From positions 108 through 64,107 of the forward strand of contig JAGORH010000017.1 in the NCBI GenBank assembly GCA_018062915.1: a stretch of 64,000 nt of DNA, read 5' to 3'. Below are positions 6,268 to 57,768 of this stretch, piece by piece (the first letter of the stretch is position 1; each line of letters opens with the position of its first letter). Source of the stretch: Kofleriaceae bacterium. GTDB taxonomy: Bacteria > Myxococcota_A > Polyangia > Haliangiales > Haliangiaceae. The position numbers and the translations under genes were made by a program. Below the pieces are notes generated by a model, which saw only the letters and a program-made list of their open reading frames with translations, did not search any database and had not been told where the DNA came from.

Positions 6268-6448
6268 GGGACCGAGACGGAGACGGAGACCGAGGCGGAG
6301 GCCGAGACCGAGACCGAGGCGGAGACCGAGACCGAGGCGGAGACCGAGACCGAGACCGAGACCGAGACCGAGACGGAGGCGGAGGCCGAGACCGAGACCG
6401 AGACCGAGGCCGAGACCGAGGCGGAGACCGAGGCAGAGGGCGAGACCG
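6268..6448. repeat. (GAGRCS)n hexanucleotide tandem repeat, copy 1 of 6
   Basis: ~30 tandem GAGACC/GAGGCC/GAGGCG units. Intergenic between the stop of lipoprotein gene 6451..7593 and the DUF4157 gene start. Confidence 0.9.
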
Positions 6449-6450
6449 AT

Positions 6451-7593
6451 TCAGGGCAGCGTCGCGAACCAATCCAGGCACAACGGCCCGAGGTTGGCGT
6501 TGTAGGACGCGCAGTGCGGCGCGTCGGGCACGTGCTCGATCGCGCAGTCGCGATCCGGCGCCGCGTCGAGGAGCGCGCACAGATCGGTGAAGGGCTGCGC
6601 CGGCACCACGTCGCGCTCGCAGCGGTTGGCCAGGTCGTCGGCCCAGCGCCCACCCTCGGTGACCAGCTTCCAGTGCGGGACGGCGAAGCTGGCGGCGTCG
6701 ACCCCGACCGCGAAGGCGGACCCGTCGGGGCCGCGGGTGACGATCGAGTCGAAGTCGACGCAGTCGCCCTCGCCGCAGTCGCCGGGGTAGGGCAACCACG
6801 CGTGGTCCGGATCGCACGCGCACTGACCGCCCTCGCTGCCGCCGCAGGCATGGGCTGCGGTCGCGGTCGCGCGGGTGTAGGCGCTCGCCACTCGTCGGTG
6901 GCGGCCGGCGCAGCTCGGTCCGGTGCCAGCGCCGACGAAGGCGTCCTGGGCGCGCACGTCGACCACGCCGTCGCTCATGCAGACGCCGTTGCGGCCGGTG
7001 CCCAGCCAGGCGGCGTCGACCTGGTAGCGCGCCGCCACTACCGGATAGCGGGTCGCGCCCATGCTGCAGCCGCCGTGGAGCAGGTTGGCGCCCGACCACA
7101 CGCCGAGGTCGCCGCCCGGTCGCAGCCGCGCCAACGCCGCGCCGACCACCCGCTGATCGCGCTCCGGCGCACCCAGCGAGGTCGGCAAGATCTCCCCGGG
7201 GTAGAGCGGCTGCGCGCACAGCATCACCGTGCGCGGGTAGGCCGCCAAGAGCGCCGTCGTCGCGTCGGCCAGCGCCGGCGTGTCGCAGTCGAAGGCCGAC
7301 CAGTACAGGAAGACGTCGTCGCACGGCGCCGCTGCCGTGCAGACGTCGCCGCGGTAGCGCACCCGGTACTGGCACGCGCCGCACCGCGGATCCGTCGCCG
7401 CCGGCCCCTCGCAGCGCGCCGGCCACGCCTGGCAGTCGTCGAGGAAGATCGATCCGGTATCGACGATCGCGGCGGCGTCGAGCGCGGCGCCGTCGATCGC
7501 GTCACCGATCGTATCACCGGCGTCGAGGGCCGCGCCGCCGCCACCGCAGGCCATCGTCAAGAGCGCGCCCAGCGCCAAGCCATGTCGGAGCAT
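6451..7593 (-). CDS. Cys-rich secreted lipoprotein, hypothetical
   Basis: MLRHGLALGALLTMACGG lipobox signal at internal Met. Many Cys. Plus-ORFs 6016..8109 and 6587..6790 rejected. Confidence 0.65.
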   Translation of the reverse strand: MLRHGLALGALLTMACGGGGAALDAGDTIGDAIDGAALDAAAIVDTGSIFLDDCQAWPARCEGPAATDPRCGACQYRVRYRGDVCTAAAPCDDVFLYWSAFDCDTPALADATTALLAAYPRTVMLCAQPLYPGEILPTSLGAPERDQRVVGAALARLRPGGDLGVWSGANLLHGGCSMGATRYPVVAARYQVDAAWLGTGRNGVCMSDGVVDVRAQDAFVGAGTGPSCAGRHRRVASAYTRATATAAHACGGSEGGQCACDPDHAWLPYPGDCGEGDCVDFDSIVTRGPDGSAFAVGVDAASFAVPHWKLVTEGGRWADDLANRCERDVVPAQPFTDLCALLDAAPDRDCAIEHVPDAPHCASYNANLGPLCLDWFATLP

Positions 7594-7646
7594 CGCCGCA
7601 ACGACCCGCGGGCGCCGCCCGAAGTTAGGCCCCACGAAGGAACAAC

Positions 7647-55770: not shown

Positions 55771-56826
55771 GTGACTGTCATCCGCATCCTCGTCCCCCTG
55801 GTCGGCGCCCTGGCGCTGACCGGCGGCCCCGCGTCGGCCCAGCCGCTGCCGGTGCCGATCCCGCTGCCCCCGCCCACGCCGCCGCCCGACGGCACGCCGC
55901 CCGACGGCACGCCGCCCGACGGCACGCCGCCCGAGGGTACGCCGCCCGACGGCACCGCGCCCGACGGTACCGGCCAGCCGCCCACGCCGCAGCCGCCGCC
56001 CCCGGGGAACCCCGAGGTCATCGCGGCGCTCCCCACCGACGAGGCGCCGCCATCGCCACCGTCGCCGCCGCTGCCGCTCCCGGAGCTCTTGCTCGCACCC
56101 ACCGGGTACCTGTTGCCGGCTGGCGTCATCTACTCGCGCTCGGGGGTCGACACCTCGGGCGGGCTCTCGGGCGACCTGCGGTTCGGGCTCGGTCAGGTCG
56201 CGGAGTTCGGCGTGGCGATGACCGATCTGATCCGCGCTCGCGAGGCCTTCGGCGCGACGCCCGAGCGGCTGGCGCCGTTCTACACCGCGACCTTCCGCAT
56301 GGGCCTCGCGGAGGACCGCCTGTTCGCGCACCAGCCGGCCTTGACGCTCGGCTTCCGCAAGTCCTTCGAGCATGAGGACGCCGGTCGGCGCGCTCGGATC
56401 GCCGAGCTGCACCTGGCGGCGTCGAAGCGCCTGGGGGCGCGGGCCAGCGTCCACGTGAACGGCACCTTCTGGGACGCCTCGGTCGAGGACGTCGACGGCA
56501 CCGTGGTCGCGCTCCACGATCAAGGTCTGGGCAAGCAGCTCCGGGTCGGCGGCGGGGTCGCGATCCGCGCGGTCGACGACGCCGACATCGCCATCGACCT
56601 GGCCTGGGTGCCGGAGTTCTGCTTCACCTGCCTGGCGGAGAACCGGACCCGGCTGCGGCCGGTGCTGTCGTGGGGCGTGCGTTACGACCTCGCGCGCTGG
56701 GCCATGCTGCAGTCCGGCGTCCGGGTTCCGGACATCGGGGACGCCAACCTCCTCGACGCGCAGATCTTCGGGCAGCTCACCCTGGTCAACCGGACCCTCG
56801 AGCGGGTGATCGCCCGCAAGCGCTAG
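55771..56826 (+). CDS. secreted protein with (PPDGT)n Pro-rich linker and beta-barrel-like C-terminal domain, paralog 2
   Basis: Signal MTVIRILVPLVGALALTGGPASA. PPDGTPPDGTPPDGTPPEGTPPDGTAPDGT repeats. C-terminal domain similar to its neighbours (LAWVPEF..., WGVRYDLA). Confidence 0.6.
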   Translation: MTVIRILVPLVGALALTGGPASAQPLPVPIPLPPPTPPPDGTPPDGTPPDGTPPEGTPPDGTAPDGTGQPPTPQPPPPGNPEVIAALPTDEAPPSPPSPPLPLPELLLAPTGYLLPAGVIYSRSGVDTSGGLSGDLRFGLGQVAEFGVAMTDLIRAREAFGATPERLAPFYTATFRMGLAEDRLFAHQPALTLGFRKSFEHEDAGRRARIAELHLAASKRLGARASVHVNGTFWDASVEDVDGTVVALHDQGLGKQLRVGGGVAIRAVDDADIAIDLAWVPEFCFTCLAENRTRLRPVLSWGVRYDLARWAMLQSGVRVPDIGDANLLDAQIFGQLTLVNRTLERVIARKR

Positions 56827-56829
56827 CCG

Positions 56830-57624
56830 ATGGTCGCCTCGGTCCCCGCCCGCACGTCGACGCTCGGCCTGGCGCTGGTCGCGCTCGCGGTCGTCGCCGG
56901 TCCGGCCCACGCCGAGGCGCCGTGGATCGCGCCGACGGTGATCACGGTGCCGACCGCGTGGACCCAGCCGGGCACCGCGGTCTACGCCAGCCTGGGCGGC
57001 GATCATCGCTTCGGGACGAGCGCCCGCGCCACGGTCGGCTACGCCCGCTTGGTCGAGGTCGACGTCGGCGGCGACGGCCTGCTCACGAGCTGCGCGCCCT
57101 GTGACGGCCCGGCCCGCGCCGCGACGCCAGCCCAGCTCGCGACCGCGGGCTGGAAGCTGGCGGTGCGACCGACCGCGCGGCTGGCGCTGGCCGGTGGGCT
57201 GCGGGTGCCGTTGCCCGGCGGCGACGGTCGGCGCGCGGCCCAAGGCTTCGCGATCGGCTCGCTGCGCCTGGGTCCGGTGGCGCTCCACGCCGGGGCCTCG
57301 ACCTGGGCCAGCCGCCACCGCGGCGACGACGGCGCCGAGATCGCGCTGGCGCCGACGACCAGCGTCCGGCCGCTGGTCGGCCTCGAGTGGACGCCGCGGA
57401 TCTATCCCCGCACGACGCTGGGCGCCGATCTGCAGTGGCTGCCCGAGCTCGGCCCGACCGCCGCGACCACCGCCGCGCGCTGGTCCTTCGCGTGGGGCGT
57501 GCGCTACCGCGCGCTGCCGTACAGCGCGATCGAACTAGCGGTCCGCCATCGCGAAGGCGACGCCCTGGGGGACGCGACCGTGATGGTCCGCCTGTCGGCG
57601 GTCCTGTCGGCGCGACCGCGGTGA
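56830..57624 (+). CDS. secreted beta-barrel-like protein, paralog 3
   Basis: Signal MVASVPARTSTLGLALVALAVVAGPAHA. Conserved LEWTP/LQWLPEL and WGVRYRALPY motifs shared with 55771..56826. Reverse ORFs 54775..57318 and 57083..57925 rejected. Confidence 0.55.
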   Translation: MVASVPARTSTLGLALVALAVVAGPAHAEAPWIAPTVITVPTAWTQPGTAVYASLGGDHRFGTSARATVGYARLVEVDVGGDGLLTSCAPCDGPARAATPAQLATAGWKLAVRPTARLALAGGLRVPLPGGDGRRAAQGFAIGSLRLGPVALHAGASTWASRHRGDDGAEIALAPTTSVRPLVGLEWTPRIYPRTTLGADLQWLPELGPTAATTAARWSFAWGVRYRALPYSAIELAVRHREGDALGDATVMVRLSAVLSARPR

Positions 57625-57768
57625 GGCCTCTGCCTCGGCCTCGGTCTCGGTCTCGGCCTCGGTCTCGGTCTCGGCCTCCGTCTCGGTCTCGGTCTCGGTC
57701 TCGGTCTCTGCCTCGGTTTCGGTCTCGGCCTCCGCCTCGGCCTCCGCCTCGGCCTCGGCCTCCGTCCC
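57625..57768. repeat. (GAGRCS)n hexamer tandem repeat, copy 6 of 6 (CTCGGY orientation)
   Basis: Starts at the TGA stop of 56830..57624: ggcctctgcctcggcctcggtctcggtctcgg... ~24 units, ending ~45 nt before the 57815 ATG. Confidence 0.9.

Follow-up and report, generated by a model that had tools for sequence, protein, structure and literature searches.

Bacteria seldom contain long microsatellites, and very few groups are known to have dispersed families of such repeats, the STRR heptamers of cyanobacteria being the classic case. Proposed roles of STRR are in transcript stability and translational coupling (PMC2670836). Judged by analogy, these heptamers are the closest match to the hexanucleotide arrays that we describe here from an uncultured member of the Kofleriaceae (Myxococcota). 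Both are dispersed, lineage-restricted short head-to-tail repeats in non-coding intergenic DNA, and co-transcription with neighboring genes, a property of STRR, is predicted for the arrays as well. On the other hand, STRR have 7-bp units, belong to heterocystous cyanobacteria and in some cases form hairpins, whereas the Kofleriaceae arrays consist of 6-bp units of a mixed alphabet, are unstructured, adjoin stop codons and have no copies in promoter gaps.

The arrays resemble VNTR/SSR loci in their short tandem units, whose copy number varies between very close strains, presumably through slippage. Contingency repeats of Haemophilus and Neisseria lie in ORFs or between the −35 and −10 elements, where they switch genes on and off. 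The Kofleriaceae arrays, in contrast, are located past stop codons, about once per 10 kb, and their period is divisible by 3. Like the arrays, REP/BIME elements are an interspersed family found preferentially 3′ of genes and in convergent gaps, and the transcribed 3′ region tolerates both. However, a REP element is an imperfect palindrome with a set length that RAYT transposases mobilize, while the tandem repeats of the arrays are not palindromic and vary in length, and no transposase was seen to accompany them.

With rut sites the arrays are predicted from their sequence to share an unstructured, untranslated RNA of at least 70–80 nt just past the stop codon, with C in excess of G and regular YC dimers. 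Rut sites, however, lack a tandem repeat structure and tend to be poor in G, whereas the arrays are tandem, contain 30% G and are not strict in orientation. In Bacillus operons, the 5′ leaders carry TRAP sites of 9–11 (G/U)AG triplets with 2–3-nt spacers. On one strand, the array unit corresponds exactly to GAG followed by a 3-nt spacer, but the arrays reach 57 units, lie 3′ of genes and have the GAG strand antisense in 17 of 22 tandem gaps; moreover, we know of no TRAP homolog in Myxococcota. Finally, the GAGACC hexamer also occurs in tandem in (Thr-Glu)n stretches of Rhodobacteraceae (loci L004, L062 and L112), but there it is pure, in frame and inside a conserved ORF, while the Myxococcota arrays are mixed-unit and intergenic.

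Six period-6 arrays in the window

The analysed stretch of 64,000 nt (the window) derives from a MAG of an uncultured soil/sludge Kofleriaceae bacterium. TRF and our own period-6 scan detected six arrays of 8–41 units with the core GAGRCS, 976 nt in total or ~1.5% of the window. TRF assigned them a period of 6 with 82–88% matches, and the scan found no further period-6 (non-period-3) arrays in the 64 kb. The motif (GAGRCS)6 has 56 matches in the window compared to 0 expected from 100 shuffles. In all arrays the units are contiguous, head-to-tail and spacer-free according to TRF and the unit maps, which is the structure of a microsatellite or VNTR. Minor unit variants include GAGTCC, GAACCC and GATCCC, and mixed-unit arrays of the same kind are common in other Myxococcota MAGs. 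The hexamer family of six arrays proposed in the preliminary description is thus real, as both detection procedures recover it and independent assemblies reproduce the arrays. A codon-usage gene caller and direct reading of the sequence likewise agree with its placement of all six arrays between genes, and in our analysis each adjoins a stop codon.

Below, array coordinates are followed by the extents obtained with TRF and our scan. Array A1 (plus strand, 6268–6449; 6270–6449), with ~30 units, begins 1–3 nt past the stop codon (TCA, 6451–6453) of a minus-strand gene at 6451–7578 and is bounded on the other side by the start of a minus-strand eCIS-core gene (CAT, 6158–6160); GAGRCS is on the plus strand, so that sense RNA would read CUCGGY. 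Array A2 (minus strand, 38365–38412; 38369–38408), with 6–8 units and CTCGGY on the plus strand, occupies a 53-nt gap between convergent stop codons (38362–38364 and 38418–38420) of a plus-strand Ser/Thr kinase gene (36397–38364) and a minus-strand gene for a small secreted protein (38418–38843). Array A3 (plus strand, 38884–39130; 38893–39123), GAGTCC-rich and with ~41 units, begins 1 nt past the stop codon (39131–39133) of the minus-strand gene 39131–41137. Its far end is ~8 nt short of a TTAACC element (38871–38876, plus-strand coordinates), which precedes the ATG at 38843 and is conserved in relatives. The statement that this copy fills the entire gap is therefore nearly right, except that ~40 nt, including TTAACC, are left before the ATG.

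Array A4 (minus strand, 45905–46120; 45905/45932–46115) follows a gene for a trypsin-like protease with the stop codon at 45901–45903. A (GGGGAC)3.5 leader (45905–45925) begins 1 nt past that stop, and the first of ~31 CTCGGY units 27 nt past it. Compared with loci L126 and L208, A4 is an insertion between the stop codon and a conserved hairpin/promoter region. The only terminator-like site nearby, at 46337–46349, is part of a separate conserved element. Array A5 (plus strand, 51765–51906; about 51765–51907), with 23 units and GAGRCS on the sense strand, is in register with the GA of the TGA stop codon of a kinase gene (51764–51766) and ends 72 nt from the TTG start (51978) of a gene for an RTX-repeat lipoprotein. 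Array A6 (minus strand, 57625–57768; 57623–57769), with 23–24 units and CTCGGY on the plus strand, begins 0 nt past a TGA (57622–57624) and ends 46 nt before the ATG (57815) of a DUF695/RraB gene.

Placement, orientation and RNA structure

Across the Myxococcota loci, arrays are present in 21 of 91 tandem gaps, in 12 of 30 convergent gaps and in none of 39 divergent gaps (Fisher p = 5e-5). In other words, 33 of 121 tandem and convergent gaps bear an array, compared to zero promoter-only gaps. Within tandem gaps, the array is closer to the stop codon than to the next start in 19 of 22 cases (p = 9e-4). Arrays are 50–340 nt long and in about half of the cases start 0–10 nt past the stop. The slot that they occupy extends from the stop codon to the next conserved element, which may be a promoter-like box, a hairpin or an opposing stop, and array boundaries are constant across alleles. 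The placement is thus non-random, in line with the bias toward gene ends suggested earlier, and its rules are clean: always behind a stop codon, never in promoter-only gaps. Nor do the arrays lie within coding regions of orthologs, which are simply without the repeats. The sharp boundaries may map the onset of selection on both sides of intergenic gaps at single-nucleotide resolution.

The same placement argues against contingency sequences in the usual sense, one of the roles put forward previously. With a period that is a multiple of 3, a location past stop codons and no copies in promoter-only gaps, the arrays can switch neither the reading frame nor the −35/−10 spacing by a change in copy number.

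As to orientation, the sense strand reads CUCGGY for A1, A3, A4 and A6, A2 can be read both ways, and A5 is the exception; for the window, the bias originally described is thus confirmed. In tandem gaps, CUCGGY is on the sense strand in 17 cases and GAGRCS in 5 (p = 0.017), but the ratio becomes 19:10, not significant, once arrays with just one called neighbor are added. A5 and several arrays of Kofleriaceae bin340 face the reverse way, as do about a quarter to a third of arrays overall. Because gene sense strands here have more C than G in general (skew −0.035), the orientation bias could be compositional. The term "3′-UTR element" correctly describes where the arrays lie, and it is apt for that only.

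The unit is not self-complementary, and the RNA folds no better than shuffled sequences (z = +0.6 to +4.1 for the CUCGGY strand, which contains 42% C, 30% G, 26% U and 2% A and is unstructured). This agrees with the view that the arrays are neither hairpins nor REP/MITE elements, and the contiguous units without spacers likewise set them apart from CRISPRs. No Rfam family matched the arrays, and no intrinsic terminator (a G+C-rich hairpin followed by a U tract) was found in or beside any of them.

Allele variation and the microsatellite interpretation

For A6, seven strain sequences yielded at least five alleles (20, 22, 23, 24 and 24 (+2 nt) units) that also differ in unit order, although their carriers are 96.5–100% identical over 7.4 kb of flanks. 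For example, L329 and L333 have a 100% identical left flank of 3.9 kb, yet A6 has 20 units in one and 24 in the other. A5 is represented by 0 units in L001, by 16 units in L330–L332, where a (GAG)n run and a TAG stop are also present, and by 23 units in the window, the carriers being at least 96% identical. In a 97%-identical strain, A3 differs in both length and composition. Copy number is thus polymorphic among close genomes (A5, 0/16/23; A6, 20–24), as in VNTRs, and the inter-strain comparison of units in A3, A5 and A6 strongly supports the characterization of the arrays as slippage-prone.

In the more distant L207, L208 and L126 (82–85% nucleotide and ~70% amino-acid identity), A3 and A4 are missing, and conserved sequence directly follows the stop codon at both sites. 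Moreover, 704 kb of cca-anchored relatives contained no arrays. Strains and relatives without an array have the same genes intact. Unit gain, loss and reordering in the arrays far outpace substitution in their flanks, with allele diversity exceeding flanking divergence by orders of magnitude. The arrays provide strain-resolving VNTR markers for uncultured Kofleriaceae, which are common in activated sludge.

Given the changes in length and order among near-identical strains and the absence from slightly more distant relatives, the arrays look like a bacterial microsatellite family rather than a conserved regulatory element. We consider it probable that the six loci represent a lineage-specific, hypervariable hexanucleotide microsatellite family, tolerated only between the stop codon and the next functional element. 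Such arrays would grow via replication slippage or unequal exchange, while selection on ORFs and promoter/RBS regions would trim them, which would lead to their sharp abutment to stop codons. MutS-type mismatch repair recognizes six-nucleotide loops poorly. The arrays would then ride passively in 3′-UTR or inter-cistronic transcripts, having no sequence-specific function or at most a weak spacer/insulator effect.

Placement, hypervariability, youth and the lack of RNA structure support a microsatellite family, as do in-situ evolution and bimodal length. Arrays differ in flavor, being GAGTCC-rich or GAGGCG-rich (chi-square p = 3e-5 and 2e-19), and different loci have no long unit strings in common beyond chance; the array-specific flavors point to evolution in situ. 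Variant motifs have expanded locally at array edges, an example being (GGGATC)7. Lengths fall into two classes, 2-unit chance matches in coding DNA and arrays of at least 6 and up to 41 units in gaps, with no intermediates of 3–5 units, which fits threshold-dependent runaway slippage.

Other features are harder to reconcile with a microsatellite family. Positions G1, A2, G3 and C5 are ~98–100% invariant within arrays, a figure that is partly an ascertainment effect of our motif-based array finder, while positions 4 (A/G/T) and 6 (C/G) are free. The window and an unrelated group of bin340 loci have nearly equal per-position proportions. Neutral decay should affect all positions. The order of variants is statistically random (lags 1–10, z < 1.4), as far as unit orders from metagenome assemblies, where errors are possible, allow, whereas single-unit slippage should give runs of identical variants. 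In addition, relatives have no obvious proto-repeat seed at the A3 site, although L001 shows a degenerate 2-unit seed at that of A5, and the recurrence of the motif in several Myxococcota lineages calls for either a persistent mutational bias or selection. The 17:5 excess of CUCGGY on the sense strand in tandem gaps also counts against this reading. The invariant GAGNC core and the random variant order are not expected from simple slippage and point either to a factor that recognizes the sequence or to a mutational process of an unusual kind.

Functional, mutational and coding alternatives

One alternative is that (GAGNCS)n constitutes a previously undescribed, Myxococcota-wide class of functional 3′-end elements, in which selection would preserve the GAGNC core although single loci turn over rapidly, acting as Rho-loading/insulator tracts or as pads for a binding or nicking protein. 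We regard it as doubtful. If it were true, such tracts would replace hairpin terminators in genomes of 70–75% G+C or, alternatively, would be periodic landing pads for a sequence-specific nucleic-acid-binding or nicking protein that also drives array amplification.

Taken by itself, a role of (CUCGGY)n as a Rho-loading (rut-like) site or transcriptional insulator, exposed once the ribosome leaves at the stop codon in a genome with few hairpin terminators, seems unlikely. The nearly A-free tract with C in excess of G, a YC dinucleotide every 6 nt and less structure than shuffled sequences speaks for such a role. Array length, the start just past the stop, the enrichment in convergent gaps and absence from divergent ones, the predominance of CUCGGY on the sense strand in tandem gaps and the lack of flanking intrinsic terminators also agree with it. 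However, the G content is high for a rut site, array-less strains and relatives keep the same genes intact, and the orientation is neither consistent nor clearly independent of the general C>G skew.

By analogy with TRAP, a ring protein that reads GAG triplets with 2–3-nt spacers, the arrays might form a periodic platform for a protein that reads GAGNC once per 6 nt, with the arrays acting as sponges or landing pads; we think this improbable. The invariant core with free positions 4 and 6, the unit alphabet shared by different genomes, the recurrence of the family across Myxococcota lineages and the random interspersion of variants, expected if the core alone matters, all fit a platform. But the invariance is in part built into our finder, sub-arrays without the intact core, namely (GGGATC)n, (GGGGAC)n and GAACCC, expand at array edges, and presence/absence polymorphism within the species argues against need. 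Furthermore, a 6-bp period does not fit the DNA helical repeat, and our analysis brought up no candidate protein.

Dedicated seeding, either by ectopic copying from existing arrays at breaks or by synthesis with a nickase and a polymerase, is in our estimate highly improbable. Known Type IIS/nickase sites include GAGAC, GAGTC and GGATC, but GAGGC(C/G), the commonest variant after GAGACC, is not known to be one. There is a precedent in that a nickase plus a polymerase in vitro gives non-palindromic tandem repeats bearing the nickase site (PMC10520511). Seeding would also account for the A3 site without a seed in relatives, for the missing 3–5-unit intermediates and for the unit alphabet common to loci. 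It is at odds, on the other hand, with the lack of long unit strings common to loci, with array-specific flavors indicative of in-situ evolution and with the degenerate 2-unit seed at A5 in L001, and no enzyme emerged from the analysis.

Translation of the arrays, as (Glu-Thr/Ala/Ser)n or (Leu-Gly)n read-through tails or as small acidic proteins, has hardly any credibility left and is largely refuted already. The variation in GAG|NCS is codon-like, as position 6 would be a wobble position and position 4 would toggle Thr, Ala and Ser; the pure (GAGACC)n of Rhodobacteraceae is a real coding stretch, and within the window the upstream stop is in frame with four of the five arrays that have CUCGGY on the sense strand. 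Yet 40 stop-adjacent arrays show all three phases relative to the upstream stop (CUCGGY, 11/5/8; GAGRCS, 4/6/6). Moreover, the GAG frame is mostly on the antisense strand, the arrays contain no start codons, the ORFs run antisense into real neighboring genes with poor codon usage, and sister strains dispense with the arrays. The ETEA, SVSV and RPRP ORFs are therefore spurious, as previously stated, and annotators should be warned of them. A protein-coding low-complexity repeat was rejected separately, on the same phases and because the gene caller, run on array-masked sequence, joined no ORF across the arrays.

That the arrays are artefacts of short-read metagenome assembly can practically be dismissed: four Logan contigs break ~30 nt inside an array and one A6 allele (L331) has an odd 2-nt shift, but the A6 sequence of the window recurs base for base in L121, an independent NCBI assembly, different samples share alleles (L333 and L334 for A6; L330–L332 for A5), and the family is found in many MAGs from different projects. 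The arrays themselves account for assembly breaks at gene ends in these Kofleriaceae genomes.

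Hexamer arrays at stop codons

All six loci named in the preliminary description were recovered by TRF and by an independent period-6 autocorrelation scan, and the two methods detected no further non-triplet period-6 arrays in the 64-kb window. The arrays consist of tandem GAGRCS units, reading CTCGGY on the opposite strand, and have a combined length of 976 nt. At a G+C content of ~73%, the window contains 56 matches to (GAGRCS)6, compared with 0 in 100 dinucleotide-preserving shuffles. As originally described, the arrays are intergenic, and each of them touches a stop codon; both our reading of the sequence and a gene caller based on codon usage and trained on the window place all six in this way. 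Array 1 begins 1–3 nt past a stop on the minus strand (6451–6453), array 2 occupies the whole 53-nt gap between two convergent stops, and array 3 lies 1 nt past a minus-strand stop (39131–39133). Array 4 is 1 nt away from its stop (45901–45903) when a (GGGGAC)3.5 leader is counted, and its first CTCGGY unit lies 27 nt from the stop. Array 5 is in register with the GA of TGA 51764–51766, and array 6 starts 0 nt past TGA 57622–57624. An assembly artefact was ruled out by the identical array 6 of L121, an independently assembled NCBI metagenome, and by four Logan contigs that enter this array by ~30 nt and then break. The existence of stop-abutting hexamer arrays is real and statistically solid. 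The comparative sequences used throughout are metagenome assemblies, and gene calls are home-made.

We then considered what kind of element the arrays represent. No Rfam family matched anywhere in the window at the gathering threshold. RNA folds for both strands of five arrays were no better than those of shuffles, the CUCGGY strand being, if anything, less structured (z = +0.6 to +4.1). Because excess RNA structure was absent in these five arrays, hairpin-terminator and REP-like readings were abandoned. Moreover, a promoter/terminator scan of positions 36000–55900 revealed nothing associated with the arrays and no flanking intrinsic terminators. The arrays fail the definitions of REP/BIME/MITE elements, CRISPR and intrinsic terminators, as had been anticipated from the sequence, and also that of coding low-complexity repeats. 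They fit the definition of a microsatellite/VNTR and do not fit that of a contingency locus, a reading entertained earlier.

Four of five window arrays match the Leu–Gly frame of the upstream gene. When measured from the upstream stop in 40 stop-adjacent arrays, the repeat phase was scattered across all frames (CUCGGY, 11/5/8; GAGRCS, 4/6/6), and read-through or coding of the arrays was therefore rejected. In array 5 the GAG frame runs on into the lipoprotein gene downstream; since neither the array nor the sequence upstream of it offers a start codon, we take this continuity (1 in 3) to be due to chance. Start codons are likewise absent inside the arrays in general. The ORFs that traverse them, correctly regarded as spurious in the preliminary description, run antisense into real genes. 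The arrays are untranslated.

Variation among strains and within arrays

The decisive evidence comes from the evolutionary dynamics of the arrays. For array 6, we compared the window with six JGI contigs (L329–L334) over 7.4 kb of flanks, which are 96.5–98.6% identical to the window and 98.9–100% identical among themselves. The alleles in these contigs comprise 20, 22, 24 and 24(+2 nt) units, compared with 23 in the window, and differ in the order of GAGACC, GAGGCC and GAGGCG. Between L329 and L333 the 3.9-kb left flank is 100% identical, whereas array 6 has 20 units in the former and 24 in the latter. It begins directly after TGA and ends at a common distal boundary in each of the seven sequences; the outer boundaries of the arrays are fixed, coinciding with the stop codon at one end and with conserved sequence at the other. 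Array 5 has 23 units behind a TGA stop in the window and 16 units behind a (GAG)n run in L330–L332, where the stop is now TAG. At the corresponding site of L001 (96% identical) the array is absent, and a degenerate, GAG-rich stretch of 34 nt that contains a two-unit proto-repeat is found instead. The suspicion that the repeats are prone to slippage is strongly supported by length polymorphism between strains (20–24 units for array 6; 0, 16 and 23 for array 5).

Arrays 3 and 4 add comparisons with more distant relatives. In the 97%-identical strain L206, the promoter-proximal units of array 3 are retained; the stop-proximal half is different, with (GGGATC)7 and a 17-nt spacer past the stop. The array is absent from L207 (85%) and from L208 (Myxococcales IPL61, GCA_016717005.1; 82% nucleotide identity), in which a spacer of 22 or 60 nt separates the stop from the conserved TTAACC...ATG region. 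Compared with L208 and with L126, a relative sharing ~70% amino-acid identity, array 4 constitutes an insertion that separates the stop from a conserved hairpin/promoter region. Zero arrays were found in 80 cca-anchored relatives (704 kb). Taken together, the comparisons for arrays 3–6 and the array-free relatives show that the arrays are young and species-restricted at each locus, with a turnover that far outpaces the accumulation of point substitutions. The arrays are non-coding, unstructured, hypervariable, and present or absent within one species.

Two further differences between the strains were observed. The stop adjoining array 5 is TGA in L001 as in the window, and TAG in L330–L332 (L330 4958–4990 versus window 51764–51770); the stop codon and its context may be rewritten by array-edge dynamics. 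Upstream of array 6 there is a large replacement, with a kdpFABC–kdpD operon and a BBP2 porin gene in L329, L333 and L334 (1–6850), and a cca–methyltransferase–kinase–RTX lipoprotein block in L330–L332 and the window (46.8–53.7 kb). Its junction is near a convergent gap (window about 53.66–53.71 kb), and the strains are at least 97% identical around array 6.

Within the arrays, unit positions 1, 2, 3 and 5 (G, A, G and C) are 98–100% invariant, an invariance that is partly circular since the array finder demands GAG.C. at the outset. Position 4 is occupied by A (0.50–0.54), G (0.35–0.38), T (0.09–0.10) or C (0.02), and position 6 by C (0.79–0.83) or G (0.16–0.17); these proportions hardly differ between the window and bin340, an array-rich Kofleriaceae MAG. 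Variant sub-arrays of (GGGGAC)n, (GGGATC)n and GAACCC expand at array edges. Unit composition differs significantly between arrays (chi-square p = 3e-5 and 2e-19), and GAGTCC-rich and GAGGCG-rich arrays are nearly mutually exclusive. The longest unit strings common to different loci are not longer than in order-shuffled arrays, and together with array-specific composition this points to evolution in situ rather than copy-paste. Runs of identical variants, the signature of single-unit slippage, were not found, and unit order could not be told from random at lags 1–10. The window contains no arrays of 3–5 units, and its six 2-unit matches, all in coding DNA, are chance occurrences.

Distribution and placement rules

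Exact protein matches, present in three NCBI MAGs (MBP8807597.1, MBP9171892.1 and MBP9858167.1), assign the window to a Kofleriaceae bacterium MAG. The homologs of a flanking 668-aa protein all come from Kofleriaceae or Myxococcales MAGs. Scanning one genome per GTDB species for (GAGRCS)6 returned at least 119 loci, the resulting densities and taxonomic limits being lower bounds. Myxococcota MAGs hold at least ~50 of the loci listed, and the carriers among the matches listed are Kofleriaceae, Haliangiales, Nannocystaceae, Polyangia and Sandaracinus; bin340 (JAGPCY01) alone has at least 17. With up to 57 units, the arrays in these MAGs are long; they are of the mixed-unit type and lie between genes. 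Three other groups of matches were judged not to belong to this family: the actinobacterial ones (Streptomyces and others) are short and fall inside called genes, those in Rhodobacteraceae are pure (GAGACC)n coding for (Thr-Glu)n of a conserved protein, and viral contigs gave short, pure arrays, mostly of low to moderate G+C. Since the other matches are short, pure and/or coding, mixed-unit, stop-adjacent arrays are a Myxococcota feature within the species sample scanned. We also observed (GAGRCS)n arrays of up to 210 units in three contigs (L015, L077 and L080; G+C 45–54%) of a MAG labelled Metamycoplasmataceae. Their composition is unlike that of a mycoplasma, possibly reflecting host or eukaryotic contamination of the bin.

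The closest analogue of the arrays is the cyanobacterial STRR family of dispersed, intergenic repeats, which has 7-bp units instead of hexamers and for which roles in transcript stability or translational coupling have been proposed (PMC2670836). The full-text literature, incompletely covered, yielded no account of the repeat, of myxobacterial hexanucleotide families or of Kofleriaceae/Haliangium tandem repeats; given that coverage, the missing report is no proof of novelty.

Placement was counted for the Myxococcota loci and the window, with arrays masked ahead of gene calling. Arrays are present in 21 of 91 tandem gaps and 12 of 30 convergent gaps, but in 0 of 39 divergent, promoter-only gaps (Fisher p = 5e-5 against tandem and convergent gaps combined), from which they are thus excluded. 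In tandem gaps, 19 of 22 arrays are closer to the stop than to the next start (p = 9e-4). About half of the stop-adjacent arrays begin at most 10 nt from the stop, and the distance to the next start is usually 20–400 nt. The orientation bias reported earlier held in tandem gaps, where the sense strand reads CUCGGY in a ratio of 17:5 (p = 0.017), and weakened to 19:10 once arrays with just one called neighbour were added. Among the Myxococcota loci, TAG accounts for 15 of 31 stops adjoining arrays versus 51 of 188, a difference (p = 0.02, uncorrected) that would fail multiple-test correction.

Origin of the arrays and neighbouring features

The arrays are probably a lineage-specific, hypervariable hexanucleotide microsatellite family that selection confines to the slot behind the stop codon. 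Such arrays would grow by replication slippage or unequal exchange; MutS-type repair misses six-nucleotide loops. Purifying selection would guard ORFs and promoter/RBS regions, so that the short unconstrained slot right behind the stop, just 0–60 nt long in array-free relatives, would be the sole place for arrays to persist and grow. The stop-abutting pattern would then arise without any function.

The microsatellite model fails to account for several features: the near-invariant GAGNC core, the unexpected random interspersion of unit variants, the array 3 site at which no seed is seen, a motif that recurs unchanged in several Myxococcota lineages and a possible sense-strand bias. A genuine, as yet undescribed 3′-end function behind the conserved core and the placement is doubtful, though conceivable. 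The same features keep three specific rivals alive. The CUCGGY strand (42% C, 30% G, 2% A), unstructured, with YC every 6 nt and laid bare at once on ribosome release, might act as a Rho-loading or insulator tract, as the enrichment of arrays in convergent gaps would suggest; its high G content, the 'wrong' orientation of many arrays and the sister strains that do without them make this unlikely. By analogy with TRAP on GAG triplets, the arrays might bind a protein periodically through the GAGNC core, a quite unlikely role. Enzyme-driven or templated amplification, modelled on the non-palindromic tandem repeats bearing a nickase site that a nickase and a polymerase generate in vitro (PMC10520511), is very improbable.

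Other features of the window deserve mention. Upstream of cca lies a ~70–80-nt block (window 46240–46356, plus strand; L126 about 9780–9945; L208 about 3130–3300, minus strand) that is near-invariant in relatives merely ~70–82% identical elsewhere. It reads AGCCGCACGC..AGCGTTCGCTGGCGCCGCAGCAGGC..CCCCCC..GGCCGCTGCGG then T9, ends in a clean hairpin and U-tract terminator (46337–46356) and is preceded by a conserved GGTGAAATTTC..CTTGC box. From its sequence, the block looks like an unannotated small RNA gene; Rfam gave no match to it at the gathering score, the best being BcKCsr2 (23 bits versus 40). Two nearby repeats are coding and unrelated to the hexamer family: 15–33-nt tandem repeats (AKKA-type) in a small lysine/alanine-rich protein (49011–49400, plus strand), whose L208 ortholog matches histone-like HC2 (PF07382), and a (GAC/GAA)16 acidic tract in the next gene (49601–50503, plus strand).

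Over 61553–64000 the G+C content falls to ~64% and no gene is called with confidence by the codon model; a weak MopE-type metal-binding motif is all that the longest ORFs (61919–63043 and 63040–63957, minus strand) show, and the segment may have been recently acquired. A single ORF at 11148–12608 (minus strand) joins a radical-SAM/4Fe-4S domain (residues about 15–132) to a thymidylate-kinase/AAA domain (about 308–478), a fusion reminiscent of viperin-like radical-SAM and nucleotide-kinase pairings of antiviral systems. Array 1 lies just upstream of a gene for an eCIS-core-domain protein (PF13699; 3980–6160, minus strand), and 17537–30685 (plus strand) holds four very large genes, one with DUF6603 (448 bits) and one with an IPT/TIG domain; these genes may form a region of toxins or effectors associated with a contractile injection system. 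Finally, an 827-aa protein (30716–33199, minus strand) with a Major Vault Protein shoulder (PF11978, 4.7e-25) and Vault_3 repeat domains (PF17795) is a predicted bacterial homolog of the vault shell protein known from eukaryotes.
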